Part shown: positions 25,992-52,711 of the stretch, one piece after another | How positions within the stretch are numbered: position 1 is the first letter of the stretch | Layout: every line of letters begins with the position of its first letter | Source: Halarcobacter sp. | GTDB lineage: Bacteria; Campylobacterota; Campylobacteria; Campylobacterales; Arcobacteraceae | Assembly: GCA_963676565.1 (NCBI GenBank) | Contig: OY781089.1 | Location: forward strand, 2,432,001-2,496,000 | DNA: 64,000 nucleotides | Reading direction: 5' to 3' | Made by a program: the position numbers and the translations under genes | The notes under the pieces: model-generated | The model's database searches: none | What the model was told of the DNA's origin: nothing | Seen by the model: only the letters and a program-made list of their open reading frames with translations

Positions 25992-26039
25992 TCAAAAGAC
26001 ATTAAAACTATACAAAAAAACATACTTATTCAATAAAAT
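25992..26039 (+). promoter_or_regulatory. Cluster promoter motif, site A (SDR operon)
   Basis: TCAAAAGACA-N7-TATACA-N19-TAAAAT. Confidence 0.65.
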
Positions 26040-26057
26040 AAATAAAAAAGGTTTATC

Positions 26058-26813
26058 ATGGAAGCTAATAATAGAATTTGGATAATTGGCGGAAGTAGTG
26101 GTATTGGATTAGAACTAGTGAAGATATTATTAAATGAAAATCACTATTTAATTGTAAGCTCTAGAAATGCAACCACTAATGAAGAGTTACAAAAACTGCA
26201 AGAAAAATTTCAAGATAACCTTTATTTATTAGATTTAGATGTAAGTAAAGACAACTTCAAAAATGAGGTACAAGAAGCCTGGGGAGTATATAGAGGTTTA
26301 GATATATGGTTTTATAATGCAGGAACTTATGAAGTTATGGATATAAACAATTGGAATAAAGAGCACTTTATTAAAATGAATGAAACAAATTACTTAGGCG
26401 TTGTAAAATTAATGTGTGAGATTATTCCATATTTTAAAAATCAAGGTTTTGGAAAATGGATATGGAATTTAAGTCTTTCTACATATTTTGGCTTACCTAA
26501 AGGTGGTGGTTACTCTGCACCTAAAACAGCCTTATTAAACTTAGCACAATCAATTCATCCTGAACTTGATTCCCTTGGAATTAAATTAAAAGTTATAAAC
26601 CATGGTTTTGTAAAAACTAGACTTACTTCAAAAAATGATTTTGAGATGCCCCAACTTATGAGTGCAGACTATACAGCAAAAAAAATTAGTGAAGAGATGT
26701 TTGAAGATAAAAAATTTGAAATTTCATTTCCCTTTAAATTAAAAATATTTTTAAAATTTCTATCTATACTTCCCTATAAAATATCTTTATCTATTACAAG
26801 AAAGATGATTTAA
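26058..26813 (+). CDS. Short-chain dehydrogenase/reductase
   Basis: GGSSGIG, NAG, YSAPK (YxxxK), GFVKTRLT..NDF.MP. Confidence 0.9.
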   Translation: MEANNRIWIIGGSSGIGLELVKILLNENHYLIVSSRNATTNEELQKLQEKFQDNLYLLDLDVSKDNFKNEVQEAWGVYRGLDIWFYNAGTYEVMDINNWNKEHFIKMNETNYLGVVKLMCEIIPYFKNQGFGKWIWNLSLSTYFGLPKGGGYSAPKTALLNLAQSIHPELDSLGIKLKVINHGFVKTRLTSKNDFEMPQLMSADYTAKKISEEMFEDKKFEISFPFKLKIFLKFLSILPYKISLSITRKMI

Positions 26814-27232
26814 TGAGTATCGAAGAATATGCTTCTTTTTTTGAAAATATTCAAAAAGAGACAAAAAAACAAGAATATGAAAAGTTTTATAATGAAAAGG
26901 TAATATTTAAAGACCCTTTTCATGAATTAACAGGTACTGAAAATATATATATTGTTTTTCAAAATATGTTTCAAAACCTTGATAATACTAAGTTTGATGT
27001 AACAGAAATAGTTTCAAATAAAAAAATATCATATATAAAATGGAATTTTACCTTCTCATTTAAAAACAAAAAAGAGATAAACAAATTTACAGGAGTTAGT
27101 AGAATAGTCTTCGATGAAAATAACAAGGTTTTAATACACGAAGATTATTGGGATGCAGCACATAATATTTATGAAAAATTTCCAATATTATCAAGTTTGC
27201 TAAAATTTGCAAAATCGAAAATTCAGAATTAG
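26813..27232 (+). CDS. NTF2/SnoaL-like protein
   Basis: F.DPF, G.S...F, H.DYWD motif. Confidence 0.85.
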   Translation: MSIEEYASFFENIQKETKKQEYEKFYNEKVIFKDPFHELTGTENIYIVFQNMFQNLDNTKFDVTEIVSNKKISYIKWNFTFSFKNKKEINKFTGVSRIVFDENNKVLIHEDYWDAAHNIYEKFPILSSLLKFAKSKIQN

Positions 27233-27238
27233 TATATT

Positions 27239-28474
27239 ATGAACTATTATTATCCACTAATTGCAATGCCCCTTGCTATATTAGGCTTACCACTATATAT
27301 CTATCTTCCAACATATTATGCAGTTGATTTAGACTTAAATATTACTCTTGTTGGTGTGGTTTTATTTTTAGCAAGATTAATTGATGTAATTAGTGACCCA
27401 CTAGTTGGTTTTTTAAGTGATAAATCCCAAAGAATTTTAAACAGTAAAAAACCAATTATGTTTTTAGGCTTTTTAATCGCTTCACTTTCATTTTATGCTT
27501 TAATAAACCCAATCAAAGAGTATGCTATATATTTTCTAATATTCTTTTCTATTTTAATCTATTTAGGGTTTAGTATGATTATGATTCCCTATTTAACGTG
27601 GGTTTCGGAAATAAGTGATGATTATAATGAGATTAGTACATTAAATAGTAATAGAGAGCTTTTTACAATAATTGGTTTAGTTTTAGCATTAATTGCCCCT
27701 TTTATAATTGATTCTCAGGAACTTTCCCAAAAACTGAATCTACTTTTTTTATTATTTATCTTTTTGTTTACTCCTTTATTTTTAATAACACTTTTTAAAA
27801 TGAAAACAAAATTTATAAATGATCAAACAGAGATAAAATTAAGTACATTAAAACTAATTTATAAAGAAAAAGAGGATTATAAATATTTACAAATTGGATA
27901 TTTCCTAAATTGTTTAGCAAATGCAATTCCAGCAACACTATTTCTTCTATTTATACAAGTGGTTATTCAAGATAAAAACTCAAATGAGTGGATTTTAATA
28001 GTATATTTTGTTGCAGGAATAATTGCCTTACCCTTTTGGAATAAACTATCAAAAAGTAAAGGCAAAAAGCAAGTATGGGTATTATCAATACTTCTGGCTT
28101 CTATTAGCTTTATCTTTGTGATTTTTCTAAAAGAAGGGGATATTTTATGGTTTACATTAATCTCTTTTATAACAGGACTTAGTCTTGGTGCTGACATCGC
28201 TTTTCCAACTGCAATTCAAAGTGATGTTATTCAAAACTCAAAATATAAACAATTATCCTCTACATCATTTGGTATTTGGACTATGTTAACTAAACTTGCA
28301 CTTGCTAGTTCAGTTATGATAACTTTTTCAATTTTAGGACTAATTGGTTTTGATGAAAATAATATAAATCAAAAGATGATTTTAACACTCTCTTTACTTT
28401 ATGCACTTTTACCAGTTATTTTAAAACTATTCTCTTTATATTTTATTTTCAAATTTAAAGAAATCAAAAAATAA
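27239..28474 (+). CDS. MFS transporter (GPH/MFS_2 family)
   Basis: About 12 TM; ARL.D.ISDPLVG.LSD. Confidence 0.88.
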   Translation: MNYYYPLIAMPLAILGLPLYIYLPTYYAVDLDLNITLVGVVLFLARLIDVISDPLVGFLSDKSQRILNSKKPIMFLGFLIASLSFYALINPIKEYAIYFLIFFSILIYLGFSMIMIPYLTWVSEISDDYNEISTLNSNRELFTIIGLVLALIAPFIIDSQELSQKLNLLFLLFIFLFTPLFLITLFKMKTKFINDQTEIKLSTLKLIYKEKEDYKYLQIGYFLNCLANAIPATLFLLFIQVVIQDKNSNEWILIVYFVAGIIALPFWNKLSKSKGKKQVWVLSILLASISFIFVIFLKEGDILWFTLISFITGLSLGADIAFPTAIQSDVIQNSKYKQLSSTSFGIWTMLTKLALASSVMITFSILGLIGFDENNINQKMILTLSLLYALLPVILKLFSLYFIFKFKEIKK

Positions 28475-28478
28475 CCTT

Positions 28479-28527
28479 ATAAATAGACAAATTATTCATA
28501 CAAAAAAACTTCATTTGATTATAAAAT
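28479..28527 (+). promoter_or_regulatory. Cluster promoter motif, site B (lipocalin-ufa operon)
   Basis: ATAAATAGACA-N7-CATACA-N19-TAAAAT, followed by RBS AGAGGAG. Confidence 0.7.
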
Positions 28528-28547
28528 CACTTTCAAGAGGAGTTCAT

Positions 28548-29096
28548 ATGAAGAATTTAACATTCCTAGTAATATTTATGAGTATAGTTTCCTTAATAAT
28601 TTTGACTAAAACTCCCTCTTACGCCAAAGCCCCAGCCCCGGTAATTTATGTAAACCCCAATGAATTCAGTGGGCTTTGGTATGAAATTGCAAGAACTTAC
28701 AATAGTTTCGAAGAAGATTGTGTTGCACCAACAGTTGAATATAAAAAAATCACTGATACAAAACTTGAAGTATATAATAGATGTTTTAAAGAAAAGATTG
28801 GTGCAGATTTAAAAGAATATAAAGGAATTGTGGAACCTTTGGGTTCTAATGGAAATATGTCTTTAATGGAAAAAACATATTATTGGATTTTTTCTGAAGA
28901 GTATAGAATTATTTATTTAGATAATTATGAAACTGCAGTAGTAGTTGACAAAAATATGGAATATGTTTGGATAATGAATAGAAAACCAACTATAGAAAAT
29001 AAAAAATTAGGGAATATAATCTCAATATTAGATAACTACATTGATACTGATAAATTAATATTTCCTAAACAAGATAAAAATGGAAGATACAAATGA
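28548..29096 (+). CDS. Lipocalin (Blc-like)
   Basis: FSGLWYEIAR, two Cys, YVWIMNR. Start moved to ATG 28548 behind AGAGGAG. Confidence 0.85.
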   Translation: MKNLTFLVIFMSIVSLIILTKTPSYAKAPAPVIYVNPNEFSGLWYEIARTYNSFEEDCVAPTVEYKKITDTKLEVYNRCFKEKIGADLKEYKGIVEPLGSNGNMSLMEKTYYWIFSEEYRIIYLDNYETAVVVDKNMEYVWIMNRKPTIENKKLGNIISILDNYIDTDKLIFPKQDKNGRYK

Positions 29097-30343
29097 GTGA
29101 GAAAAAACTAAAAATTGCTGTAATTGGAGCTGGGATAAGTGGTCTTGGTTCAGCATACCTTTTGAGCAAAAAACATGATGTAGATATTTTTGAAAAAGAG
29201 AATAGGCTTGGAGGTCATGCAAGAACAACTCAAATTACAAATGATGGAAAACCATTTGGAGTTGACACAGGTTTTTTGGTTTTCAATCATCAAACCTACC
29301 CTCTTCTAACAAAACTATTTGAAGAATTAGATGTAAAAATAGAAAAGAGTGATATGAGTTTTGCCTTTTGGGATAAAACTTCAAATATTGCTTATAATGG
29401 TCAATCATTAAAAGGTATGTTTGTACAAAAGAAAAATCTATTTAATCTAAGCCACTATAAAATGATAAGTGATATTTTAGATTTTAATAAGAAAGCAAAT
29501 AGTGATTTAAAAACAAATTCAGCTGATTTGGATGTTAGTTTAGAAGAGTATTTAAAACCCTATTCAAAATATTTTAAAGATAGATATATTGTACCAATGG
29601 GAGCATCTATTTGGTCTACACCAACTCAAAAAATGAATGAATTTCCAGCTAGAACATTTTTAACTTTTTTCAAAAACCATGGCTTACTAGGTGTTGATAC
29701 ACATCACCAATGGTTAACCGTTAGCAATGGTTCTATAAATTATGTAAATAAAATCAAATCTAAAATCTCTGGAAAAATATTTCTTAATTCAAATATCATA
29801 TCAGTAAAAAGAGAAGATGGTAAGGTTTATATAACAACAAAAGAAGATGGTGAAAAAGAGTATGATAAAGTTGTTTTTGCCCTACATGCACCAGATGCAT
29901 TAGCTATTTTAGATGAACCATCAATTGAAGAATTAACTATTCTTTCATGTTTTAAATACAAAAAGAACAATGCGGTATTACACAATGATACTAAAGCTTT
30001 ATACCCTAATAAAAAATCATATGCAGCATGGAACTATAAAACAAATGGTGATGAAGAATCAGTTACCTTATCTTATTGGTTAAATCTACTTCAAAATCTA
30101 GATTCAAAAAAAGAATACTTTGTTTCTTTAAATGAAACAGATTCTTTAGATGAAGTGATTGAGAAAATCGAATACTCACATCCCCAATTTGACCAAAAAG
30201 CAATTGATGCACAAGAAAAAAGAGATCTAATTAATGGGAAAAACAATACTTACTACGCAGGAGCATATTGGAGATATGGTTTCCATGAAGATGGTTTATA
30301 TAGTGCAAATACAATAGCAAAAGAGTTTGGATGTGAGTTATGA
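29093..30343 (+). CDS. FAD-dependent oxidoreductase/desaturase (UfaD/RSP1091-like)
   Basis: IAVIGAGISGL, RLGGHA, VDTGFLVFN..TYP, AAWNY, GAYWRYGFHEDG. Confidence 0.85.
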   Translation: MSEKKLKIAVIGAGISGLGSAYLLSKKHDVDIFEKENRLGGHARTTQITNDGKPFGVDTGFLVFNHQTYPLLTKLFEELDVKIEKSDMSFAFWDKTSNIAYNGQSLKGMFVQKKNLFNLSHYKMISDILDFNKKANSDLKTNSADLDVSLEEYLKPYSKYFKDRYIVPMGASIWSTPTQKMNEFPARTFLTFFKNHGLLGVDTHHQWLTVSNGSINYVNKIKSKISGKIFLNSNIISVKREDGKVYITTKEDGEKEYDKVVFALHAPDALAILDEPSIEELTILSCFKYKKNNAVLHNDTKALYPNKKSYAAWNYKTNGDEESVTLSYWLNLLQNLDSKKEYFVSLNETDSLDEVIEKIEYSHPQFDQKAIDAQEKRDLINGKNNTYYAGAYWRYGFHEDGLYSANTIAKEFGCEL

Positions 30344-31086
30344 TACAGCATAATTACCTTGATGGCTCAATCTTTCATAAAAGATTTCATCCAAAAACCC
30401 ATGATTTTAAATACAAATTTTTTATGGTAGATATCGATTTAAACTCTTTCGAGGACTTAAATAAAAACAAATTATTTTCATACAATAGTTTTAATCTATT
30501 TTCATTTCTTACAAAAGATCATTTTGGTAAAAGTGATGATTTTTTAAAAAATGTTGATGAACTATTAAATAAATTCAAAATTAAAAAAACATTAAAAATG
30601 AGATTTATAACCCTTCCTAGAATCTTAGGTTTTGTCTTTAATCCAATTAGTGTACTAATTTTATTTGAGGAAAATAAACCCAAATTTATGTTTGCCGAAG
30701 TGCATAACTATAATGGAGGAAGAGTTGTTTACCCAGTTGAACTAAAAGAAAAGAATGAAAAAACCTTAACGGGTAAAACCAAAAAAGATATGTATGTTTC
30801 ACCTTTTTTTAAAAGGGATGGGGATTATAGTTTTGATTTAATATATGATGAAAATGATTTTCAACTTTCAATAAAACTATATGAAGATGGGAAAAAAGTT
30901 TTAGTTTCAAACCTTTTAACCAAAAAAATAGAGTTTAGTGATAAAAAAACATTAAAGATGTTTTTTAAACACACTTTATTAACTTTTTGGGTTGTTACAA
31001 GAACAATCTACCAAAGTATCAAATTAAGATTAAAAGGTCTTAAATGGACTCAACCAATTCCACAAGATCAAACAAGGAGAATATAA
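30340..31086 (+). CDS. DUF1365 family protein (UfaO/RSP1090-like)
   Basis: H.RF.P..H.F.Y, PRILGFVFNPIS, AEVHN, K.MYVSPF. Confidence 0.9.
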   Translation: MIQHNYLDGSIFHKRFHPKTHDFKYKFFMVDIDLNSFEDLNKNKLFSYNSFNLFSFLTKDHFGKSDDFLKNVDELLNKFKIKKTLKMRFITLPRILGFVFNPISVLILFEENKPKFMFAEVHNYNGGRVVYPVELKEKNEKTLTGKTKKDMYVSPFFKRDGDYSFDLIYDENDFQLSIKLYEDGKKVLVSNLLTKKIEFSDKKTLKMFFKHTLLTFWVVTRTIYQSIKLRLKGLKWTQPIPQDQTRRI

Positions 31087-31087
31087 A

Positions 31088-32314
31088 ATGGAAGCTTTCT
31101 GGAAAAAAATTGGGGAAAAATTTTTATCAAAAATTGAAATTGGAAATTTAGAAGTAACATATCCAAATGGTGAAATAAAAAACTATGGTAAAACTTCTTA
31201 CCCAAAAGCAAAAATAAAACTTTATACAAATAAATTTTTCAAAAGAATTATGTTTTATGGGGATATAGGATTTGCTGAAAGTTACATGGATAAAGATTTT
31301 GATTGTGACAATTTAACTTCATTAATCAAAATTGCATTATTAAACTCTTCATCTTTAGAAACAGTAAGTAATCATGAAAAAAACTTTTCTTTATATAACC
31401 TATTCCCTTTTATAAACAAAGTCAAGCACTACTTAAGAAAAAACTCTAAAACAAAGGCTAGAAAAAACATCTCGAAACATTATGATTTATCAAATGATTT
31501 CTTTAAACTTTTCCTTGATGATACTATGATGTATTCAGCTGCAGTTTTTGAAAACCCAAAAGAACCATTATTTGATGCACAAAAAAGAAAAATAGATATC
31601 TTAGCAAAAAAACTTAATCTAAAAAAAGGTTCAAAAGTTTTAGAGATTGGTTCAGGATGGGGAGCTATGGCAAGTCATTTAGTTAAAGAGTATGATTGTA
31701 AAGTTACAACTTTAACTCTTTCTAAAGAGCAAAAAAAGCTATGTGAAGATAGATTTAAAGAGAATAATATTGAAGAGTCTATTGATGTTTTATTAAAAGA
31801 CTACAGAGATATGGAAGGTAAGTTTGATGCAATTATTGCTGTAGAGATGTTTGAAGCAGTAGGACGTGAATACTTTGATGTATTCTTTAAAAAATGTGAA
31901 GATTTATTAAAACCATCTGGAAATTTAGTTATGCAAATAATTACAATGCCAGACCAAAGATATGATTCATATTGTAAAGGGACAGACTTTATTCAAAAAT
32001 ATATCTTCCCAGGTGGTCATCTACCAAGTGTGGCAAAGATTTTAGATGTAACGACTAATCATACAAACTTAAATCTACTTCACATGGAAGAGTTTACAGA
32101 ACATTATGCAAAAACATTAAATATCTGGCATGAAAACTTCAATCAAAGAATTGAAGAGGTAAAAAAGCTTGGGTTCGATGATTATTTCATAAGAATGTGG
32201 AGAATGTATCTTTGTTACTGTGAAGCTGCATTTTTAACAAGAAATATTGGTTTAGTTCAAATTACCTTAACAAGGTATAACAATATTCATCTAAATGAAG
32301 GGCTTGTAGCATGA
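31088..32314 (+). CDS. Cyclopropane-fatty-acyl-phospholipid synthase family methyltransferase (UfaM-like)
   Basis: GFAESYM, NI..HYDLSNDFF, LEIGSGWG, EMFEAVG, FIQKYIFPGG, YCEAAF. Confidence 0.92.
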   Translation: MEAFWKKIGEKFLSKIEIGNLEVTYPNGEIKNYGKTSYPKAKIKLYTNKFFKRIMFYGDIGFAESYMDKDFDCDNLTSLIKIALLNSSSLETVSNHEKNFSLYNLFPFINKVKHYLRKNSKTKARKNISKHYDLSNDFFKLFLDDTMMYSAAVFENPKEPLFDAQKRKIDILAKKLNLKKGSKVLEIGSGWGAMASHLVKEYDCKVTTLTLSKEQKKLCEDRFKENNIEESIDVLLKDYRDMEGKFDAIIAVEMFEAVGREYFDVFFKKCEDLLKPSGNLVMQIITMPDQRYDSYCKGTDFIQKYIFPGGHLPSVAKILDVTTNHTNLNLLHMEEFTEHYAKTLNIWHENFNQRIEEVKKLGFDDYFIRMWRMYLCYCEAAFLTRNIGLVQITLTRYNNIHLNEGLVA

Positions 32315-32841
32315 AAAAACTACTAGTATTATCAATATTTTTTACAATTTTTTTTACAGGATGTTCAAAAATGCAAATAGAAGATTTTAAAGATAAAACT
32401 CCAGAATTTATTCCACAAGAATACTTCAATGGAAAAATGACTGCTTATGGTTTAGTAAAAGATAGAAGTGGAAAGATTATTAGAAGCTTTAAAGGGCAAC
32501 TTATTGGCTCATGGGATGAAAATGGGATTGGAACATTAGATGAAAAATTTGTTTATGATGATGGTGAAGAATTAACTAGAGTTTGGACTTTAAAACCTAC
32601 AGGTGAAAAATCATTTGATGCAACAGCAGGGGACATAATTGGCACCGCAAAGATGCAAGCTTTAGGAAATACAGTTATGATAGATTATGTAATGAGAGTA
32701 CCATATAATGATTCTACAATAGATATTAGTGTTAGAGACTGGTTACATTTACAAGAAGATGGTGTAATAATTAACCACTCAAAAATGAAAAAATTTGGAT
32801 TTACAGTTGGTGAATTAGTTATCACAATTATCAAGGAATAA
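32311..32841 (+). CDS. DUF3833 family lipoprotein
   Basis: Lipobox FTGC, YFNG...AYG, LDE.F.YDDGE...R.W, DW. Confidence 0.85.
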   Translation: MKKLLVLSIFFTIFFTGCSKMQIEDFKDKTPEFIPQEYFNGKMTAYGLVKDRSGKIIRSFKGQLIGSWDENGIGTLDEKFVYDDGEELTRVWTLKPTGEKSFDATAGDIIGTAKMQALGNTVMIDYVMRVPYNDSTIDISVRDWLHLQEDGVIINHSKMKKFGFTVGELVITIIKE

Positions 32842-32844
32842 GCC

Positions 32845-34014
32845 TTGGAGAATCAAGAGAAGATAAGAGGACAAGAGATAAGAAGCATTTTATTTTTAAT
32901 GATTCTTTTCTTACCATTATCTTCAATTGCTAATTACTTTAATGATAGACCACAATTTACCCTTTTATATTCAATTGCATCAATTTTCACTGTAATTCTT
33001 TTTTTTAATTTAAAGAAAATAAACAACAATAATAAAGTAGCTAAATATATGTTGTTAATTCTATTTACAATATTTTTTAGCTTTTTATTCCTAGGTAATC
33101 AAAACAGTTTTGACATATTTTGGGTTCTGGTACTACCTTTAGTAACAATAATGATTGAATCTTATAAAAATACAAAAAAATGGTTGATTGGTTTTATTGT
33201 TCTACTTTTAATATCTTTAATTATATCCTACACAAAACTAGTAAATTATGATAGTTTTGCCATCTGGTCATTATTGTGGGCAGGTATTTTTGTTTCATAT
33301 ATGAGTTTTCACTACAAAAAATCACAAAATATTTTAGAAAATGAAATTTATGACTACCAAAAGAACTTAGAAAAAAAAGTAGATATTGCCACTAAAGAGA
33401 TTCAAATTTTAAACAATGATTTGGAAGAAACCCAAAAAGAGATTATACAAAGACTTGGAACTTTAGGTGAATTTAGATCAAATGAAACTGGTGCACATGT
33501 TATAAGAGTTGGTTTATATTCAAAGAAACTAGCACTTTTATATGGCTTAAGTGAAGAGTTATCAGAACAAATCAATCTTACAGCTCCTTTACACGATATT
33601 GGAAAAGTAGGTATTGAAGATTCTATTTTAAATAAACCTGCAAAACTTACACAAGAAGAGTATGAAACTATGAAAAAACATGCAAGTATTGGTGAACTAA
33701 TTTTAAGTAATTCAAACAAACCATTAATACAAATGGCATGTGAGATTGCAAGTGGCCACCACGAAAAATATGATGGAAGTGGTTATCCTAAGGGTTTAAA
33801 AGGTGAATTTATACCTTTAAGTGCTAGAATTGTAGCCATTGCAGATGTTTTTGATGCATTATACTCAAAAAGAGTATACAAAAAAAGTTGGTCTAAAGAA
33901 GATATTAAAGACTATTTTATGGAAAATAAAGCTGTTCACTTTGACCCTGAATTAGTCACTCTTTTTTTAGATAACTTTGATGAATTTGTAAATATATATG
34001 ATAAGAATAAATGA
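32845..34014 (+). CDS. Membrane-bound HD-GYP phosphodiesterase
   Basis: About 6 TM; ETGAHV.RV, LHDIGK, HHEKYDGSGYP, ADVFDAL. Confidence 0.9.
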   Translation: MENQEKIRGQEIRSILFLMILFLPLSSIANYFNDRPQFTLLYSIASIFTVILFFNLKKINNNNKVAKYMLLILFTIFFSFLFLGNQNSFDIFWVLVLPLVTIMIESYKNTKKWLIGFIVLLLISLIISYTKLVNYDSFAIWSLLWAGIFVSYMSFHYKKSQNILENEIYDYQKNLEKKVDIATKEIQILNNDLEETQKEIIQRLGTLGEFRSNETGAHVIRVGLYSKKLALLYGLSEELSEQINLTAPLHDIGKVGIEDSILNKPAKLTQEEYETMKKHASIGELILSNSNKPLIQMACEIASGHHEKYDGSGYPKGLKGEFIPLSARIVAIADVFDALYSKRVYKKSWSKEDIKDYFMENKAVHFDPELVTLFLDNFDEFVNIYDKNK

Positions 34015-34021
34015 GGAATAG

Positions 34022-34789
34022 ATGAAAGTAGTATTGACAATTGCAGGAAGTGATAGTAGTGGAGGAGCTGGTATTCAAGCTGATTTAAAAACCTTTGAAA
34101 ATTTTGGAGTTTTTGGAGCATCAGTTTTAACAGTTTTAACAGCTCAAAACACAACAGGTGTGAGAAGTATTAGCCAAATAGATTCAAACTTTGTAAAAGA
34201 ACAACTTGAGATGGTTTTTGATGACTTAGAAGTTGCAGCAGTAAAAATCGGAATGCTTTTTTCAAATGAGATTATTGACACAGTAAGAGAATTTATAAAA
34301 GGTTTAGATATTCCAATAGTATTTGACCCAGTTTTTGTATCAAAAGCAGGTTCTAAACTTTTAAGTGATGATGCAGTAGAAAATATGAAATCTTTATTTC
34401 CCTATGTTACAGTAATAACTCCAAATACCTTTGAAGCAAAGGGTTTGTTTAACTTCAATGAAAACAATGGTAATGGAGTTGAAGAGATTAAATCTTTACC
34501 TTGTGAAGTTTTAATTAAAAATATAAAAAAAGGTACTCAAAGTATTGATAGACTTTATTTAGGTGAAAATATTATAGAGTTTGAATCTGCATTTTTGAAT
34601 TCTGAAAACACCCATGGAACAGGTTGTAGTTTTAGTAGTGCAATAGCTGCTAATATTGCCTTAGGCAAAAGCTTAGAAGATTCAATCTCAATTGCCAATA
34701 AATTTGTTTTTGAAGCAATTAATAATGCCCCAGGAATAGGAAAAGGGAAAGGACCGATTTCTCATAAAAAAGGGTTTGAATCATTATAA
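34022..34789 (+). CDS. thiD: Hydroxymethylpyrimidine/phosphomethylpyrimidine kinase
   Basis: LTIAGSDSSGGAGIQADLKTF, THGTGC. Confidence 0.93.
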   Translation: MKVVLTIAGSDSSGGAGIQADLKTFENFGVFGASVLTVLTAQNTTGVRSISQIDSNFVKEQLEMVFDDLEVAAVKIGMLFSNEIIDTVREFIKGLDIPIVFDPVFVSKAGSKLLSDDAVENMKSLFPYVTVITPNTFEAKGLFNFNENNGNGVEEIKSLPCEVLIKNIKKGTQSIDRLYLGENIIEFESAFLNSENTHGTGCSFSSAIAANIALGKSLEDSISIANKFVFEAINNAPGIGKGKGPISHKKGFESL

Positions 34790-34801
34790 ATTTAAAAAGG
34801 T

Positions 34802-35167: not shown

Positions 35168-35173
35168 AACATC

Positions 35174-35222
35174 ATAAACTTACATTTTTAGCCTACTAAT
35201 TTCCCACTAATTATAAGATAAT
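35174..35222 (+). promoter_or_regulatory. Cluster promoter motif, site C (degenerate; renalase-like operon)
   Basis: ATAAACTTACA-N7-CCTACT-N19-GATAAT. Confidence 0.45.
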
Positions 35223-36167: not shown

Positions 36168-36169
36168 TT

Positions 36170-36451: not shown

Positions 36452-36452
36452 T

Positions 36453-42162: not shown

Positions 42163-42164
42163 CT

Positions 42165-44835: not shown

Positions 44836-44853
44836 CTTAGTTCCAATATGTGT

Positions 44854-45789
44854 TTAAGCACATCTGTTTTCAAATAAATCTTTTAGAGTTTCAAGGAAAT
44901 ATTGATTATGGTTTGGAGCCTTTGCTACTCTATAATCTTTTATTCCAACCTCATCGGCAATCTCTTTATACTCAATGTCAAGTTCAAATTGTGTTTCAGA
45001 GTTATCTACTGTAAAAGATATTGGATAAACAATAACCTTTTTATCTTTCATCTCATGAAGCTTATCATCCATATATGGTCTAATCCATTCCATTGGTCCT
45101 AGTCTAGACTGATATGCTGTATGTATATTCTTAAACTTAATACCTTGTTTTTCTAACTCCTTCTTTGCACACTCTACATTTGCAAGAATATGCTTTTGAT
45201 AAGGATCACCTTTATCTATAGTTCTTTGAGTTAAACCATGTGCAGAAAAGATTAATTCAAACTCTTCTGATTTATCATCTCCTAATGTCTCTTTTATTCT
45301 CTCTACTATTGCTTTATTATATAACTCATGGTCATAATATGAATCTAAGGTTTTAATCTTACCTTTAATACCTAATTTCTTTGCCCATTTTTCAAACTCT
45401 TCAATTGATGATTTAGTTGTAGTTGAAGAATAGTGTGGATACATTGGAATTGCATATATTTCATCATAAGGCTTTAAGTCTTTTAATACATCTTTAGCAA
45501 AAGGTGGTGTGTATCTCATCTTATAAAATACATCAGCATCAACTATTTTTTCTAGTCTTCTAGCTAATCTTTTTGTATGACCTACTATTGGAGACATTCC
45601 CCCTAGAGCTTTATAGTTTTCTTTTGCTTCTTTTTTTCTCATACTTGTAATAAAAAAGCCTATCATTGCTCTTATTGGTTGTGGAGCTCCAATTATATAT
45701 TTATCATTAAACATGTTTGTTAGGAAAACCTCTACCTCATTTAGGTTATTAGGTCCTCCCATGTTCATTAGTACAATTGCTTTTTTCAC
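44854..45789 (-). CDS. hemH: Ferrochelatase
   Basis: LMNMGGP, GG.SP, MRY..P, SAHGL, YQSRLGP..W, F..DNSET..EL. Confidence 0.95.
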   Translation of the reverse strand: MKKAIVLMNMGGPNNLNEVEVFLTNMFNDKYIIGAPQPIRAMIGFFITSMRKKEAKENYKALGGMSPIVGHTKRLARRLEKIVDADVFYKMRYTPPFAKDVLKDLKPYDEIYAIPMYPHYSSTTTKSSIEEFEKWAKKLGIKGKIKTLDSYYDHELYNKAIVERIKETLGDDKSEEFELIFSAHGLTQRTIDKGDPYQKHILANVECAKKELEKQGIKFKNIHTAYQSRLGPMEWIRPYMDDKLHEMKDKKVIVYPISFTVDNSETQFELDIEYKEIADEVGIKDYRVAKAPNHNQYFLETLKDLFENRCA

Positions 45790-45808: not shown

Positions 45809-45857
45809 ATAATATTTAAATTGGCTGTTTTTTTGTATGTAATTCTTGTTAGTTTAT
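45809..45857 (-). promoter_or_regulatory. Cluster promoter motif, site D (hemH-phrB-cry operon)
   Basis: Minus strand ATAAACTAACA-N7-CATACA-N19-TATTAT. Confidence 0.7.
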
Positions 45858-46316
45858 ATTATTTTGTTGAGATAAAATTTCTTTAGTGATTTTATGTCTA
45901 AAGCTAAACATACTATCTAATTCTTTTTTTACAAAGAAATTAAAAAGCTTACCAAATCTTCCAAAGGGTAAAACATATAAAACTTCATCTTTCAATTCTA
46001 CACTATTACCTCTTTTAGTAAATATATGGGAATGTTTCCAATACCTAAATGGAGACTTCATCGCAAAATCTACAAGTAAATTAGGTTTTTGATTTTTTAA
46101 TATCTTAACTTCCCAATATATTGGAATAGGCATAAGTTTTTTTACTGTTTTTAATCGTAGAACTTCATGCTCTTTTGCTTCAAAGCTATCATTTAACATA
46201 GTTACTTTCATATCAGGAGGAGTAATCTTTATTAAATTATTTGAATCAAGATGAAACTCATATAACTCCTCTACTGTACAGTTTTTTATTAATGAAGTTT
46301 TCTCATACTTAAACAT
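45849..46316 (-). CDS. SRPBCC family protein
   Basis: FH....NL..ITPP, SPF.YW.H.H.F, D...Y.LPFG, F..R. Confidence 0.85.
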   Translation of the reverse strand: MFKYEKTSLIKNCTVEELYEFHLDSNNLIKITPPDMKVTMLNDSFEAKEHEVLRLKTVKKLMPIPIYWEVKILKNQKPNLLVDFAMKSPFRYWKHSHIFTKRGNSVELKDEVLYVLPFGRFGKLFNFFVKKELDSMFSFRHKITKEILSQQNNIN

Positions 46317-46320
46317 TTAC

Positions 46321-47175
46321 TTAGCCTACTAAATCTTCTATAGTATCTTCTATATTTGTATATTTAAATTTAAAACCACTATCAATTAATCTTTTTGGTT
46401 TAGCACATTGTCCATCAGTTAAAACCTTTGCACCTTCACTAAATATCAAGTTTAATGCAAACTCAGGTACGGGGAATATTGTAGGTCTATTTAAAGTTTT
46501 TCCTAAAGCTTTTGTAAGTCCTAAATTAGTTGTTGGTGTTGGTGCTGTTAAGTTATACACCCCTTCACATTGTTTATTTTCTATTACATGTTCATAGGCA
46601 TCCAATAAATCACTTATATGAATAAATGAAAAATTTTGTTTCCCATCTCCAATGGTACCACCAACTCCAAGTTTAAATGGAGTTAACATCTTTTTTAAAG
46701 CTCCGCCATCACCTAATACAATACCAAATCTAAATATTGCTGTTCTAATATCTAATTCTTTAGCCTTTAAAGCTTCAGCTTCCCAATCTTTTGCTAATTT
46801 ACCTAAAAAATCTTTTGAATAATTAAAGTCATCTTCGTTATAACAAGCAATATTGTCATATATACCAACTGCTGAAGTTGATATTAAAAGTTCAGTTTTT
46901 TTTTCTGCTTTTTCAAAGGCTTTGATTAAAGCTTTTGTAGTATCTATTCTACTAGAGTATAATAATTTTTTATAAGACTCAGTCCATCTGTTGATAATAT
47001 TTGCACCAGCAAGATTAATAACTACATCTGCTTTTTCTATAGTTTTTGTAAGCTCTTTTATATCTTTAAGGGTTTCTCTTTTGATTCCAATTACTTTAAA
47101 TCCCTTATTCTCAAATCTATTTTTAATACTAGTACCAACAAAACCACTTGAGCCAGTTATTGCTAAAGTTTTCAT
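46321..47175 (-). CDS. TIGR01777 family NAD-dependent epimerase/oxidoreductase
   Basis: ITGSSGFVG, VINLAGA.I..RWT, SAVG.Y, RFGIVLG.GGAL, GQ...P..L. Confidence 0.9.
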   Translation of the reverse strand: MKTLAITGSSGFVGTSIKNRFENKGFKVIGIKRETLKDIKELTKTIEKADVVINLAGANIINRWTESYKKLLYSSRIDTTKALIKAFEKAEKKTELLISTSAVGIYDNIACYNEDDFNYSKDFLGKLAKDWEAEALKAKELDIRTAIFRFGIVLGDGGALKKMLTPFKLGVGGTIGDGKQNFSFIHISDLLDAYEHVIENKQCEGVYNLTAPTPTTNLGLTKALGKTLNRPTIFPVPEFALNLIFSEGAKVLTDGQCAKPKRLIDSGFKFKYTNIEDTIEDLVG

Positions 47176-47204: not shown

Positions 47205-47252
47205 ATTATAATATATTTATGATTTATTGGTATATTTTATTTGTTAGTTAAA
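47205..47252 (-). promoter_or_regulatory. Cluster promoter motif, site E (TIGR01777 operon)
   Basis: Minus strand TTTAACTAACA-N7-TATACC-N18-TATAAT. Confidence 0.7.
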
Positions 47253-47257
47253 CCTTT

Positions 47258-47965
47258 TTAAAAACTTCTTTTATCTAGATATTCTCTAAAATCTTTTGCC
47301 CCATCCTTAGAACTTGTCACAATATCATCAATTCCATTAAATGATATCTCTAACTTAGATTGTTCTACACTTTGCATAGATTTAATCTTATCTACATTTA
47401 CAATATATGACCTATGTATCCTAAAGAAATTTTTACCTTCTAATACAGACTGCATATCTCCAATCTTTTTTCGTAAGTAAGCATCTGCATCTTTGATTTT
47501 TATAATAACTTCATCTAAATCAGCTTTGATATAAAAAATATCATCTATATCAATAAGATAGATTTTATTTCCTCTTTTTGCCACAAGTTTTTTTGTTTCA
47601 TCAGCTTTTACAATATATTTTTTCATTTTATCCAATGAGTTTTTTATTGATTCATTTGAAATTGGTTTTAGTAAATAATCAATACCACCACTTTGAAAAG
47701 CTTCAAGTGCATGCTCTTCATATGCAGTTTGAAATATAATAAAAGTTTTTGGATTTAAATTTACTATTGTGTTTGCTAACTCTAAACCATTCATATCTGG
47801 CATTGATATATCTAAAAAGGCAACATCAAACTTCTCTTTACTTAAAATTTTTATTGCTTCAATAGCACTAGAACAAGCAGTAACATCTAAAATCCCTTCT
47901 TCATTTAAAAGTCTATTTAATCTACTAAGTGCTAATTTTTCATCATCTACTATCAATACTTTCAA
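47258..47965 (-). CDS. LytTR-family response regulator
   Basis: IVDDE.LA, FLDI.MP..NG, TAY, DYLLKP; LytTR signature FFRIHRSYIVN. Confidence 0.93.
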   Translation of the reverse strand: MKVLIVDDEKLALSRLNRLLNEEGILDVTACSSAIEAIKILSKEKFDVAFLDISMPDMNGLELANTIVNLNPKTFIIFQTAYEEHALEAFQSGGIDYLLKPISNESIKNSLDKMKKYIVKADETKKLVAKRGNKIYLIDIDDIFYIKADLDEVIIKIKDADAYLRKKIGDMQSVLEGKNFFRIHRSYIVNVDKIKSMQSVEQSKLEISFNGIDDIVTSSKDGAKDFREYLDKRSF

Positions 47966-47967
47966 TA

Positions 47968-48957
47968 CTAATCCTTCAAGCTTATTATAAATTTCATACT
48001 AGAACTATCTACTTGATGGCTTAATCTTCCAACATCAAGCAGATCTAATCTTTTATCAAGATTATTTAAACCTGTTCCATATTTTATTCTTTGAGATAGT
48101 TTACCATTATTTATTATAACAATCTGCTTTGAAGAAACTAAAACATCTATTTTTAGTTTATTTCTATTATATCCATGCTTTATTGCATTTTCTACTAATA
48201 GTTGAATAGAAAACTTAGGTACTAAAATATTTTCATCATCTTCATTTAACTCAACATTTAGTTCAATATTATTCTCAAACCTAATATTTTCAATATTTAA
48301 ATAGGTTTTAACCATATCAATTTCAGTTTTAATTGGAATTAAACTCTCTTTAGTAATGGCATTACGTAAAAACCTAGATAACTCAAGGGTTGCTCTCTCT
48401 GCATCTTTTTTATCTACATATATTAATTCAGAAATAGAATTTAAGGCATTAAATAAAAAATGTGGATTTAATTCATTTTCTAAAGCTTTAATTTTTGTTT
48501 CTAAAACTTGAGAATGTATATTTTCATATCTATGTTTCATTGATACAAATTGGTGTAATATTAGTCCAATTAAAAATGTGAGAAATCCAATAATTATAGA
48601 GATAAAAAACCAATAAGGACTTATAAACTCTACTATTTCAATTTTAAAAAAAGAACCAAAATAAAAACTAAAAGAGAAACCTAAAAACCCAGATAAAAAT
48701 GAGAAAAAGAAACTAATCAAATACCAAAATTTCTCTTTGAGCTTTGGTAATATAAAATCATTTGAGATTGTAATAAATACAAAAGAAAATAAAGAGATAC
48801 AAAAAGCCGTTAAACTACTAAAAAGTACTGTGTATACATTTTTGAATTCTTCATTTAGAAAATAGAAAAACCAAGAGATTAAAAACCCAAAACTAGTTCC
48901 TATAAATATTATATAAAGCCAGTCTCTTTTTGAAATTTTTAATTTTATTCTATCCAT
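47968..48957 (-). CDS. LytS/YehU-type membrane histidine kinase
   Basis: About 4 TM with short loops, L..ELNPHFLFNALNSI, E.IRF, Q.LVENAIKHG, GTGL.N...RL. Confidence 0.9.
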   Translation of the reverse strand: MDRIKLKISKRDWLYIIFIGTSFGFLISWFFYFLNEEFKNVYTVLFSSLTAFCISLFSFVFITISNDFILPKLKEKFWYLISFFFSFLSGFLGFSFSFYFGSFFKIEIVEFISPYWFFISIIIGFLTFLIGLILHQFVSMKHRYENIHSQVLETKIKALENELNPHFLFNALNSISELIYVDKKDAERATLELSRFLRNAITKESLIPIKTEIDMVKTYLNIENIRFENNIELNVELNEDDENILVPKFSIQLLVENAIKHGYNRNKLKIDVLVSSKQIVIINNGKLSQRIKYGTGLNNLDKRLDLLDVGRLSHQVDSSSMKFIISLKD

Positions 48958-50368
48958 TAAATTCCTTGTTTAAAGCTTTTACTCCAATTGCAACGCCAGG
49001 CCATCCTTGACCTGCAAAAACTGAGTCTCCAATATTGTATAAACCTTTAAAGGGTGTTTTAGCACTAGGAGTTGAAAAAATATTTTTCATAGTAATAGCT
49101 CTACCTCCACAATTATATCTATTTACATACCTGTTAAAGGTAAGTGAAGTAGCACTAAATTTTTTTATTATATCCTCTTTTTTTATAGTATTAAGTTTCT
49201 GCAATAGTTTTTCTATAATAAACTCTTGGGTTTGCTCTTTTTTTAATTCATACTCATCTTTATCTAACTTTTTCCAAAAAGAAGCCTTTGTATGAGAAGA
49301 GATTGTAACTGAGAATCCCCTTTTTGACATCTTTTCATCATCTTTACTACTAATAGAGATAAAAAATGAATTTGAGATACAATTTGGTATCTGTTCATCA
49401 AGAATTATTAAATAATGGTGTAAAAGATCATAATTTTTTTCTAATACCAAATTTACTACAAAAGCACTTTGGTCATTGAACTCAAAACTATCATAATATT
49501 TTTTTATTCTTTCATCTTCAAAAAGTTTTCCACTATCATAAATAGTAGAGTTTAATACTACATTCTTTGATAAATATTCATCTTTATTTGAGATTAGTCT
49601 AAAATAGTCTTTTTCTAAAACTATTTTTATAATCTCCTCTTTTTTCTTAATTTCAATATCTTCAAGTAAACCATCAAATAAACTACCCATTCCACCATTT
49701 ACATAAAATACATCATGAAAAGGGTATGAAAGCCCTAAAGCTAAAGAAAGAAGTGATATATCCTTTGATGTTGTTTGTAAAGTAATCAAAAGTTGTGCAT
49801 CAATAAAATGTTGATACTCTAAACTTATATTTCCAAGGGTTTCTTTTATAAAACTATTTGCACTTTTAAATACTTCAATATTAAAACTTCTAAAAAGTTT
49901 AATTAGAGTATTTGCACTAAGTATATAAGATTTTAAAGAATATTTTCCATAATAAATATCATGGATTTGCCAAAACTTTTCATCAAGCTCTTTAATTTTG
50001 GCCCAAAAAGCTCTATTATTTTTATTTGGGAAAGCTTTATTAATTTGGTCTAAAAACTCTTCAAAATCTTTTACTCTATCAATTGTTTTTCCATTTTGAA
50101 AAACTCTAAAAGCTATATTGCTTTTTTTGATATCAGGATTATAATTTGCATAATCAAAAATCTCTTTTACAGGATGGTTTTCTTCAAAGCCTACAAAAGT
50201 AGTTGCCCCACTATTAAAAAAACTTCCATATCTTTTAAAAGTACTTGCACATCCTCCTAAGTTTGAATCCTTTTCAAATACCACTATATCTTTATCGCTA
50301 TTTAATGAGGCAAACATACTGCCTCCCATTCCAGAGCCAATTACACAGAGTTCATAATATCTACACAT
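48950..50368 (-). CDS. Phytoene desaturase (CrtI)-superfamily FAD oxidoreductase, CrtD/CrtH-like
   Basis: VIGSGMGG, GGCASTFKR.G..F..GAT, GGMG.L, GDSVFAGQG..GV. Start moved to ATG 50368, which overlaps the phr stop and follows AGAGG. Confidence 0.8.
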   Translation of the reverse strand: MCRYYELCVIGSGMGGSMFASLNSDKDIVVFEKDSNLGGCASTFKRYGSFFNSGATTFVGFEENHPVKEIFDYANYNPDIKKSNIAFRVFQNGKTIDRVKDFEEFLDQINKAFPNKNNRAFWAKIKELDEKFWQIHDIYYGKYSLKSYILSANTLIKLFRSFNIEVFKSANSFIKETLGNISLEYQHFIDAQLLITLQTTSKDISLLSLALGLSYPFHDVFYVNGGMGSLFDGLLEDIEIKKKEEIIKIVLEKDYFRLISNKDEYLSKNVVLNSTIYDSGKLFEDERIKKYYDSFEFNDQSAFVVNLVLEKNYDLLHHYLIILDEQIPNCISNSFFISISSKDDEKMSKRGFSVTISSHTKASFWKKLDKDEYELKKEQTQEFIIEKLLQKLNTIKKEDIIKKFSATSLTFNRYVNRYNCGGRAITMKNIFSTPSAKTPFKGLYNIGDSVFAGQGWPGVAIGVKALNKEFNG

Positions 50369-51692
50369 TTTTAGCCTCTTTAAATCTATCAATTGCCATT
50401 TTTCTTGATAAAGAGATATCAACAATAGATTTTGGGTAATCAACAAATAAATTTGACTGAACACCATTTTCAATATGAAAAAGTCTAGGAGATAAACTCT
50501 CAAACTCTTTTATAACTGATTTTATAAAAATACCCTCTTTATCAAACTTTTGTGATTGGGTATAGGGATTAAATACTCTAAAATATGGTGCAGCATCAGC
50601 ACCTGTACTTGCTCCCCATTGCCATGAGCCAACATTTGAAGAGCATTCATAATCAAGTAGTTTTAGGGCAAAATACTCTTCCCCTTTTTTCCAATTTATA
50701 AAAAGGTTTTTTGTTAAGAATGAACAAACTATCATTCTAAGACGATTATGCATTGTTCCTGTTTCATTTAGATGTCTCATAGCAGCATCTATAATTGGAA
50801 CTCCAGTATTTCCTTCACACCATTTTAAAAAATCATCTTCATTTTCATTCCATTTAATACTCATACCATTAAAGTTATCAAATTGTGAATGTGGGAAGTG
50901 ATATAAAATATAATTGTAAAATTCTCTCCAAAAAAGTTCTCTAATAAACCCTTCACTGTTATCAAATTTTCTATAATAATTAAACAGTTGTCTTGGACTA
51001 ACTATTCCAAATCTTAGATGAACCGATAGTTTTGAGGTACCATCTTTAAAAAAGTAGTCCCTACTTTCTTGATAATCTTCTAATTTCGAAGAAAAATCTT
51101 CCATAAGCCTACACACATTTTTATTTAAAAACTCAGGTAATTGTACTTCTTTAAAACCCATTTCATCTAAAGTAGGAAATTTTTCATAATCAAAATCAAT
51201 TTTTTTAAGAGTTTCATTAAATTTGTATGTTTCTATATTATTTGATTGAGTTAACATAGCCATTGATTTGTAATATGGAGTAAAAACCTTATAAGGAGTC
51301 CCATCATTTTTTAAATGTTCACTTGGATGAGTGATAAAAGAATCATAAAACCTTTTCATAGGTAGAAGTTCTTCTATCTGATTATCCCTATTTTTTGCAT
51401 AATCATCAAAATCGCATGAGCATAAGATCTCATCAAAACCATCTTTTAATTTCCCAATAACTTCCTTTGGTTCACCATAAAAAATAGCTAAGTCAAGACC
51501 TTTTTGTTTTAATTGTTCTTTAAGACTTAGAACACTTTTATAAATAAAAGTAACTCTTTTATCATCTTTAGGGAGAGATTCTAAAATATTCTTATCAAAA
51601 ATAAAAATAGGCAATACTTCATCTTTTGCATATGAAAGTATTGCATTATCTTCTATTCTAAGATCTCTTCTAAACCAAAGGATTTGTCTCAT
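50361..51692 (-). CDS. phr: CPD (class I-like) DNA photolyase
   Basis: WFRRDLRIEDN, TSKLSVHLRFG, REL.WREFY, MHNRLRM, LLDY...SN.G.WQW. Confidence 0.92.
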   Translation of the reverse strand: MRQILWFRRDLRIEDNAILSYAKDEVLPIFIFDKNILESLPKDDKRVTFIYKSVLSLKEQLKQKGLDLAIFYGEPKEVIGKLKDGFDEILCSCDFDDYAKNRDNQIEELLPMKRFYDSFITHPSEHLKNDGTPYKVFTPYYKSMAMLTQSNNIETYKFNETLKKIDFDYEKFPTLDEMGFKEVQLPEFLNKNVCRLMEDFSSKLEDYQESRDYFFKDGTSKLSVHLRFGIVSPRQLFNYYRKFDNSEGFIRELFWREFYNYILYHFPHSQFDNFNGMSIKWNENEDDFLKWCEGNTGVPIIDAAMRHLNETGTMHNRLRMIVCSFLTKNLFINWKKGEEYFALKLLDYECSSNVGSWQWGASTGADAAPYFRVFNPYTQSQKFDKEGIFIKSVIKEFESLSPRLFHIENGVQSNLFVDYPKSIVDISLSRKMAIDRFKEAKNV

Positions 51693-52642
51693 TATTTAAA
51701 AGCCTCCACTTTAGATCTAAGTGCCATTTCCTTAGGATATGGAGTTAAGAACTTTTGATTATCAAGATATTCAATATTAAATCTTTTTACATAAATTTTT
51801 ATGATTTTAATAACTGCTACTAAAGGGATGATATGTTCTTTAAACTCATCTAAAGCAGCTAATATCTCATGTTTTTCCTCTTTTGTAATATATTTTTTAA
51901 AATATCCAAAAATATGCATTAAGACATTATAAGTGCTTGAAGTTCTACCCTTCAAGGCTATAGCTTCTAAAAACTTTTGTTTGTATAAAGATAATACCTC
52001 TTCAATATCTTTCTTCTCATGATTTGCAACAATTTGACCTAACTCTTTATATGACTTCTGAGATTTTGAATAAATAAGGTATTTATATGAAGTATGAAAA
52101 TCAACTAATTGACCAAATGATGGTTGTGTTTTCATAAACTCAAAAACATCTTTATAGGCAAATACTTGCATTAGAAAGTTTTCTTTTAACCATGGATCAG
52201 TTAATCTTCCTTCTTCTTCTATTGGAAGTAAGGGAAATTTTTCCATAAGCTCTTTGGCAAAAACTCCCACACCAACATTTTCACTTTGACCTTCGCCATC
52301 TGGATAAATTTTCACTCTAGCCATTCCACAAGTTGGAGATTTTGATTTTAAGATATAACCACAAAGTTCATCTTCACTAATAGTATCAACTAATCTTTTA
52401 GAGACACCAACAATATCTTTTGTAACATCTTGTTTAGTGTTTGTTGTTCTTATTATAAGTTCACCATTTATTCTTACTTGTCTAATAGCTTCTCTAGGAG
52501 TTGGATAGATTTCACCTTCTGGGCAAAAAGATCTAAATTCAAAATGTTTTGACAATTCGTCATAAACAAATTTATCCTTAGAATGTTGACCATCATATCG
52601 ACACTGTATTCCAAGTAAACATGTAGAAATACCAATTTTCAT
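51692..52642 (-). CDS. DUF523-DUF1722 (YbgA) fusion, thiouridine desulfidase-like
   Basis: GIS.CLLG...RYDG, CPE, KSKSPTCG, EEEGRL (DUF523); FH..YK, NVLMHIFGYFK, YL.NQ....P (DUF1722). Confidence 0.9.
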   Translation of the reverse strand: MKIGISTCLLGIQCRYDGQHSKDKFVYDELSKHFEFRSFCPEGEIYPTPREAIRQVRINGELIIRTTNTKQDVTKDIVGVSKRLVDTISEDELCGYILKSKSPTCGMARVKIYPDGEGQSENVGVGVFAKELMEKFPLLPIEEEGRLTDPWLKENFLMQVFAYKDVFEFMKTQPSFGQLVDFHTSYKYLIYSKSQKSYKELGQIVANHEKKDIEEVLSLYKQKFLEAIALKGRTSSTYNVLMHIFGYFKKYITKEEKHEILAALDEFKEHIIPLVAVIKIIKIYVKRFNIEYLDNQKFLTPYPKEMALRSKVEAFK

Positions 52643-52663
52643 CTTTAACCCTTTTTTTGTTTT

Positions 52664-52711
52664 ATTGTAACAAAATGAGGTATTTTTGGTATATTTTGTA
52701 TGTCAGTTTAT
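52664..52711 (-). promoter_or_regulatory. Cluster promoter motif, site F (DUF523-phr-crt-lytS-lytR operon)
   Basis: Minus strand ATAAACTGACA-N7-TATACC-N18-TACAAT, with extended -10 TG. Confidence 0.72.

Follow-up and report, generated by a model that had tools for sequence, protein, structure and literature searches.

What controls a cluster of photolyase and membrane-protection genes in Halarcobacter sp. (Campylobacterota; Arcobacteraceae), six promoters of which carry the same two-part motif? Regulons that defend against light and singlet oxygen have been studied in detail in the Alpha- and Gammaproteobacteria, Myxococcus and Thermus, and an original prediction, made from the letters of the DNA, had proposed that these six promoters define a regulon of this kind, adding that none was known in the Campylobacterota; the literature searched for Arcobacter or Campylobacterota, which did not cover subscription journals, likewise returned no such regulon. 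Here we analyzed a 64,000-nucleotide (nt) stretch of this genome (the window; bases 2,432,001-2,496,000 of a single-contig, 3.34-Mb genome with 28% G+C), together with related genomes. The results demonstrate that the motif is real and conserved, and the genes behind it suggest that it appears to switch on DNA photolyases together with membrane- and pigment-protecting genes. We consider it likely that the six sites are operators of a single activator, most likely a LytTR response regulator encoded in the cluster, serving a protective regulon.

Each of the six sites consists of two boxes separated by seven nucleotides and followed by a -10 hexamer. On the plus strand, site A (25990-26016; ACTCAAAAGACA-N7-TATACAAA; -10 TAAAAT at 26034-26039) lies ahead of unit A, site B (28478-28504; TATAAATAGACA-N7-CATACAAA; -10 TAAAAT at 28522-28527) ahead of unit B, and site C (35173-35199; CATAAACTTACA-N7-CCTACTAA; -10 GATAAT at 35217-35222) ahead of unit C. 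On the minus strand, site D (45832-45858; TATAAACTAACA-N7-CATACAAA; -10 TATTAT at 45814-45809) precedes unit D, site E (47227-47253; GTTTAACTAACA-N7-TATACCAA; -10 TATAAT at 47210-47205) precedes unit E and starts 5 nt past the stop codon of the LytTR regulator gene, and site F (52686-52712; GATAAACTGACA-N7-TATACCAA; -10 TACAAT at 52669-52664) precedes unit F, which encodes this candidate regulator. Scored with a matrix derived from orthologous promoters, they reach 15.4 (A), 22.4 (B), 23.4 (C), 24.6 (D), 20.4 (E) and 21.2 (F) bits, ranking 18, 3, 2, 1, 6 and 5 in the genome, respectively. The original prediction had placed them at 25992 (+), 28479 (+), 35174 (+), 45857 (-), 47252 (-) and 52711 (-), and its coordinates, strands and letters were all verified, as were the gap-free alignment of the two boxes, anchored on the ACA of box 1, and the AAAATATACCAA string common to sites E and F. 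The -10 hexamers that it named do lie 18 or 19 nt past the box-2 hexamer, which corresponds to 16 (E and F) or 17 nt (A to D) past the box-2 8-mer. Site C had been described as weak, a description at odds with its second-best score in the genome; the weakest of the six is site A. An extended form of box 2, ATACAAAAAAAC, is present in A, B and D (25994-26021, 28482-28509 and 45827-45854) and absent from C, E and F, and may mark an operator subtype.

The six sites are real and lie far beyond chance expectation. The strict pattern AACTNACA-N9-TACHAA matches the window four times (sites C, D, E and F), against a mean of 0.03 matches in 100 dinucleotide-preserving shuffles, none of which reached four, and a pattern for the A/B/D subtype that shares ATACAAAAAAAC matches three times against 0.02 expected. 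When each site was omitted in turn and ranked with a five-site matrix over both genome strands (6,681,286 positions), the omitted site ranked 4 (F), 8 (D), 10 (E), 18 (B), 169 (C) and 260 (A). These shuffle controls and leave-one-out ranks establish the enrichment over an A/T-rich background that the regulon proposal presupposed. A matrix built only from sites of other genomes placed D, C, B, F and E within the genome top six and A at rank 18, a test that is not fully independent, since those sites were initially chosen with the six-site matrix. Within the window, the six sites score between 15.4 and 24.6 bits and no other position exceeds 12.3 bits, in line with the earlier remark that the motif was seen nowhere else in it. 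One high-scoring genome position, 2320073 (-), falls inside a TerB/DnaJ gene and was treated as spurious.

The motif is also conserved in orthologous promoters: it is found before orthologues of all six units in many genera, and is kept ahead of orthologous operons in every sampled Arcobacteraceae genus with the cluster and in four other Campylobacterales families. In 20 regulator loci of 20 kb, from 20 genomes and 12 genera, we counted 35 sites that score 13 bits or more and stand 25-110 nt ahead of regulon-gene homologues, the downstream genes encoding DUF523/1722, PhrB, HemH, YfcH, the 155-amino-acid (aa) protein, the short-chain dehydrogenase/reductase (SDR), lipocalin, EAL, the 93-aa protein, the photolyase-related protein DPRP, the ThiD-like kinase, the flavoprotein or the histidine kinase. 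Orthologues of the first gene, the second gene or the EAL gene of unit C have sites ahead of them in other genomes. Among 20 loci with DUF1365, the SDR operon is preceded by a site in all 18 complete loci (directly before the SDR gene in 16, before a leading ThiD-like gene in two). The lipocalin/amine-oxidase region is present in 19 of these loci, and its operon has a site ahead of it in 18. At the place of site E, just past the regulator stop codon, a matrix that omitted E detected a site scoring 12 bits or more in 15 of 29 other genomes. In the four other families, ten loci (35-48% G+C) present sites before operons with two-component/flavoprotein genes, HemH, YfcH or PhrB, and sites occur as well in a Campylobacterales metagenome bin (24.7 bits) and in Sulfurospirillum sp. 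(15.7 bits).

Alignment of 96 distinct sites, drawn from 43 loci and the window and each scoring 16 bits or more, defines a 27-base consensus, TATnAACtrACA-N8-mTACaAA, where N8 denotes weakly A/T-rich positions. A TAnWWT hexamer starts 17 nt past box 2 in 60 of the 96 sites and 16 nt past it in 15; because this hexamer is absent from the matrix, its recurrence at these distances indicates that the element is locked to the -10 box. The 45 nt upstream of the element show no conservation across the 96 sites. Assuming a transcription start about 7 nt past the -10 box, the element would span approximately -56 to -30. Campylobacterota promoters mostly lack a -35 element, and in this genome 934 -10-like sites ahead of long reading frames show no base preference at the matching positions, which argues that box 2 is not a general -35 element. 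The fixed -10 register and the conservation before orthologues are as predicted for one shared regulator acting at the -35 region of all six units. Within the 96 sites, TAYnAA is found twice, at positions 0-5 and 21-26. This 21-bp period, the usual one for LytTR repeats, hints at direct repeats of the LytTR type, although it is suggestive only, the positions being A/T-rich. Boxes 1 and 2 are unequal in length, and resemblance to the LytTR consensus is confined to box 1 read in reverse complement (TGTnAGTTTA).

Regulators of the LytTR family have mainly been associated with quorum sensing, autolysis and pyruvate sensing. The protein most likely to bind the motif is, on comparative grounds, the receiver and LytTR response regulator encoded at 47258-47965 (-), in unit F. 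Its domains are clearly recognizable (Response_reg, 2.5e-27; LytTR, 7.5e-21), its best NCBIfam match is BtsR (3.4e-40, under the cut-off of that model), and it is both the sole LytTR match in the genome and, of the proteins whose genes accompany the cluster, the sole one with a DNA-binding domain. The genes for the flavoprotein, the kinase and the regulator lie side by side in 20 of 20 loci, and the regulator itself is present in 99 of the 151 sampled genomes of the family. With a matrix from the window only, 26 of 32 distinct loci were found to have a same-strand site of at least 13 bits in the 7 kb upstream of the regulator, compared with 3 of 33 for the opposite strand, all three being divergent regulon promoters. 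The strict pattern gave 216 matches, against 59 for reversed-pattern controls, in the 99 regulator-positive genomes, and 27 against 55 in the 52 regulator-negative ones; enrichment of the motif is restricted to genomes with the regulator. Likewise, DUF1365 occurs in 57 of the 151 genomes, and 56 of these 57 are regulator-positive. The cleanest comparison is provided by ovoA, a gene found in both groups: the 250 nt upstream of it contain a site of at least 13 bits in 9 of 21 regulator-positive genomes (four genera) and in none of 7 regulator-negative genomes, where the best score is 6.4. This gene was used in place of HemH, which was dropped as a universal test gene because the cluster HemH is a second paralogue mostly lacking in regulator-negative genomes; three regulator-negative genomes have retained the cluster-type ferrochelatase, with either no site or a degenerate one (at most 12.5 bits). 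Together, these co-occurrence counts favour the assignment of the regulator without proving it.

In the mechanism that we propose, the adjacent membrane histidine kinase, with its four predicted helices, would phosphorylate the LytTR regulator, acting with, or downstream of, the co-encoded CrtD-like flavoprotein. The active regulator would then bind, as a class II activator would, to the region from about -56 to -30 in RpoD-type promoters with a -10 box and no usable -35 element, and would activate rather than repress them. Its targets would include its own operon (unit F), three photolyase-family enzymes, lipocalins, the extra ferrochelatase, YfcH and c-di-GMP phosphodiesterases, as well as a lipid-modification set comprising the amine-oxidase-like, DUF1365, cyclopropane-fatty-acid (CFA)-synthase-like and DUF3833 proteins and, outside the window, the ovothiol synthase OvoA. 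Light, or by-products of it such as singlet oxygen and lipid peroxides, would be the presumptive stimulus.

The gene content of the six units was annotated with Pfam and NCBIfam. Unit A (26058-28474, +) encodes an SDR oxidoreductase, a SnoaL-like protein and an MFS_2 transporter. Unit B (28515-35167, +), taken as one transcript from gene spacing only, encodes a lipocalin, an FAD amine-oxidase-like protein, DUF1365, a CFA-synthase-like protein, DUF3833, an HD-GYP-type HD domain protein, a ThiD-like kinase and CbiX, and unit C (35241-37511, +) an NAD_binding_8 flavoprotein (308 aa), a 93-aa coiled-coil protein and an EAL-type phosphodiesterase of cyclic di-GMP (c-di-GMP). On the opposite strand, unit D (41158-45789, -) comprises a second ferrochelatase paralogue, a photolyase-related DPRP protein, a DASH-type cryptochrome/photolyase (TIGR02765, 327 bits, above the model cut-off), the lipocalin Blc and a Zn_protease-family protein, and unit E (45849-47175, -) a YfcH-type epimerase/DUF1731 protein (TIGR01777, 293 bits) and a 155-aa protein without a family. 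Unit F begins with a DUF523/DUF1722 protein and a class I photolyase for cyclobutane pyrimidine dimers (50361-52642, -), continues with a CrtD/carotenoid-isomerase-like FAD protein (48950-50368, -; about 472 aa from the ATG at 50368) and a histidine kinase with a PF06580 core and an N-terminal part, without a family, of about four hydrophobic helices (47968-48957, -), and ends with the regulator. Metatranscriptome contigs are 90-99% identical over parts of the HemH, YfcH, PhrB and DUF523 genes, contigs of a kind that show neither starts nor strand.

Outside the window, a site at genome position 2339321 (-; 21.8 bits), with TAAAAT at 17 nt, lies 48 nt before the gene encoding OvoA (L051, 4118-6247), identified by TIGR04344 (647 bits) and TIGR04345 (337 bits). 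At 1702138 (-; 16.4 bits), a candidate site with the same TAAAAT spacing of 17 nt stands 40 nt ahead of a gene for glutathione peroxidase (L053, 4527-5072), which we tentatively regard as a regulon member.

Several features of the cluster and its surroundings deserve mention in their own right. The ferrochelatase of unit D (44854-45789, -) is an extra paralogue, 49% identical to the housekeeping HemH at genome 1378428-1379336, and most genomes without the cluster harbor only the housekeeping-type enzyme; an inducible ferrochelatase could reduce levels of the photosensitiser protoporphyrin IX. The HD-GYP-type protein of unit B is encoded at 32845-34014 (+), the EAL protein of unit C at 36453-37511 (+), and a dCache-GGDEF cyclase at 39307-41070 (-) beside the cluster, an arrangement suggesting that the response may lower c-di-GMP. 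The 93-aa gene (36170-36451, +) is elsewhere preceded by the motif and followed by an ABC1/UbiB-like kinase gene; here, the EAL gene parts it from the ABC1 gene (37769-39061, +), which has no site of its own. A run of sensory genes (19147-25928) adjoins the cluster and encodes a hemerythrin-PAS kinase, a PAS sensor kinase, a receiver-PAS protein and a three-PAS kinase divergent from unit A. The PAS kinase at 23925-25928 was considered as a candidate regulator and rejected, as inspection by eye revealed no LOV-type cysteine motif.

The gene families of the units fit the light and singlet-oxygen regulons of other phyla, as originally claimed, when their Pfam and NCBIfam content is set against two accounts of such regulons (PMC5241685 and PMC3546557). 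The same regulator and motif could nevertheless respond to something other than light, namely a general oxidative, aerobic or membrane stress sensed in the membrane. The kinase has membrane helices only and no known light-sensing domain, OvoA and possibly the glutathione peroxidase are general antioxidant functions, and the Vibrio cholerae blue-light response itself proceeds via reactive oxygen species, according to PMC5241685. Against such a stimulus, the core members include three light-requiring photolyase-family enzymes and a ferrochelatase whose activity would reduce the photosensitiser protoporphyrin, and the flavoprotein is always co-encoded with the kinase. We therefore regard a stimulus other than light as somewhat unlikely, yet as an option to be taken seriously.

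Several observations weigh against the assignment of the six sites to the LytTR regulator and of the regulon to light. In six of the 32 loci, no site upstream of the regulator reaches 13 bits, and three genomes, G114 (99% complete), G057 (77% complete) and G100, present good sites (21.4, 17.6 and 19.5 bits, respectively) and no detected regulator, a LytTR family search being negative in G114 and G057 as well, and G100 being negative by protein query only. Regulator and regulon are inherited together, so that a different co-inherited factor would be compatible with the co-occurrence counts, and related genomes are not independent samples. The top strand of the motif is unlike the LytTR consensus, the 21-bp repeat depends on five A/T-rich positions, and it is from gene content alone that light or singlet oxygen is suggested as the stimulus.

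Some of these observations would be expected if the motif were bound by another transcription factor, encoded outside the cluster, and the LytTR system were just another member of the regulon. The occurrence of sites in G114, G057 and G100 is compatible with this scenario, as is the departure of the motif from the textbook pair of LytTR 9-mers. The sites in these three genomes (L137, L138 and L158), however, are all on short contigs (3-6 kb) of fragmented assemblies (200-290 contigs), and they may reflect either a regulator gene left unassembled or unbinned or true exceptions. Moreover, no other DNA-binding protein travels with the cluster, and both the enrichment of the motif and the ovoA sites track the presence of the LytTR regulator. 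A nearby OmpR-type regulator, encoded 9 kb away (56821-57501), was rejected because it is not syntenic in 43 loci. On balance, an outside factor appears unlikely, and the LytTR regulator remains our preferred candidate.

The two boxes might instead be read as the -35 and -10 elements of an alternative sigma factor of the extracytoplasmic function (ECF) type, controlled by ChrR. Box 1 contains AAC, as do ECF -35 elements, although the AAC-TAC gap of 14 nt differs from the 16-17 nt of such promoters, and a separate TAnAAT box is conserved 17 nt downstream. The Sigma70 family searches returned no ECF sigma factor in the genome: Sigma70_r2 (PF04542) and Sigma70_r4 (PF04545) match only the 643-aa RpoD frame, and Sigma70_r4_2 (PF08281) yielded one sub-threshold match (19.5 bits). 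As for ChrR, a 116-aa cupin protein (53640-53990) matched only Cupin_2 and AraC_binding. Hence, even though the same gene families are sigmaE-ChrR targets in other phyla, as described in PMC3546557 and PMC5241685, this reading is highly improbable.

A LitR/CarH-type B12-MerR protein, or another MerR acting on a long -35/-10 spacer, is in turn extremely improbable. The 18- or 19-nt spacer is typical of MerR promoters, but it is unconserved in sequence, and the conserved boxes are non-palindromic. MerR-type regulators do run light responses elsewhere (PMC5241685), yet the three small MerR proteins (MerR_1) and the two B12-binding matches in this genome do not coincide in any protein. The MerR encoded in the window (6481-6861, 126 aa) follows a DnaJ-like gene (the pair spanning 5580-6861, +) in an HspR-like heat-shock arrangement, and was rejected as unrelated to the motif. 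Finally, that the similarity is a chance resemblance among A/T-rich promoters, or a dispersed repeat, has a negligible probability, for all that the genome has 28% G+C and site A is weak, given the shuffles, the leave-one-out ranks and the conservation at orthologous places where the flanks have diverged, including genomes with as much as 48% G+C.

With the LytTR regulator as the preferred binder, the question becomes what it would be told, and by what sensor. The kinase core belongs to the His_kinase family (PF06580, 5.3e-23), and its NPHFLFN and VENAIKHG blocks are invariant across 18 kinase sequences. The first 150 residues contain about four hydrophobic helices, by a count made by eye, with invariant polar and glycine positions, and match no Pfam family. 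The full-length kinase was found in 30 of 401 sampled genomes of the phylum, distributed over five of 14 families that all belong to one order, and in none of the 118 and 158 genomes of the two largest families. In a scan with the kinase alignment, four of the best 80 loci match over the full length, the remainder being generic LytS-type cores, and outside the Campylobacterales the kinase relatives among the matches listed share the core only.

Among solved structures, the nearest relative of the flavoprotein is a gamma-carotene desaturase (4rep, E 2.6e-11). Carotenoid synthesis is an unlikely function, because no phytoene/squalene synthase was found in the genome, and the fixed place of the gene beside the kinase suggests a role in signalling. 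The longest frame of the flavoprotein gene (48950-50503, -) reaches 143 nt into the photolyase gene; since orthologues begin at the Rossmann motif, translation probably starts at the ATG at 50368. We tentatively suggest, as a possibility short of a probable one, that the CrtD-like flavoprotein, the four-helix intramembrane LytS-type kinase and the LytTR regulator constitute an undescribed three-part sensor that fills, in free-living Campylobacterales, the role played by sigmaE-ChrR or B12-MerR in other phyla. In such a sensor, primary reception would fall to the flavoprotein, which would perceive either blue light, via its flavin, or membrane lipid damaged by singlet oxygen, and would relay the signal to the kinase within the membrane.

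The new element in this system is the probable regulator and sensor. The analysis provides a defined operator with a named candidate regulator, and a testable regulon whose unexpected members are a second ferrochelatase, ovothiol synthesis and c-di-GMP phosphodiesterases. Should the flavoprotein-kinase pair indeed be the sensor, it would represent a new bacterial way to perceive light or lipid photo-damage, and would bear on the survival of aquatic Arcobacter relatives in sunlit, oxygenated water.

Three known kinds of system come closest to this putative regulon. According to PMC5241685, the blue-light response of V. cholerae involves ChrR plus a MerR protein, and MerR-type light regulators (V. 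cholerae VCA0056 and LitR/CarH) exert light-dependent control of photolyase operons and of their own genes. The predicted targets in Halarcobacter sp. likewise include photolyase operons and the regulator's own gene; unlike those systems, no MerR with a B12-binding domain was found here, and the operator is direct and bipartite rather than a palindrome within the spacer. With the sigmaE-ChrR regulon of Rhodobacter sphaeroides and V. cholerae, the putative regulon has target families in common, namely photolyase, glutathione peroxidase and a homologue of CFA synthase together with the operon next to it, as described in PMC3546557, PMC5241685 and PMC4336711. It differs in that no ECF sigma factor was found, the promoters combining an RpoD-type -10 box with an upstream operator.

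There are close parallels with LytTR systems such as AgrCA, ComDE, LytSR and BtsSR/YpdAB. Here, too, a receiver-LytTR regulator is encoded beside a PF06580 kinase, and a site precedes the regulator's own operon. AgrA binds paired direct repeats and activates promoters with over-long spacers of 18-20 nt, according to PMC4227749, and the Halarcobacter sp. site resembles AgrA promoters in being non-palindromic, upstream of the -10 box and associated with an over-long spacer. In contrast to LytTR systems, the site overlaps the -35 position instead of lying further upstream and misfits the LytTR consensus, and the N-terminus of the kinase, with four helices, has no Pfam family and full-length relatives found only in the Campylobacterales. 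The predicted regulon is a set of light and oxidative-protection genes, and a CrtD-like flavoprotein stands as a fixed third partner beside the kinase and the regulator.

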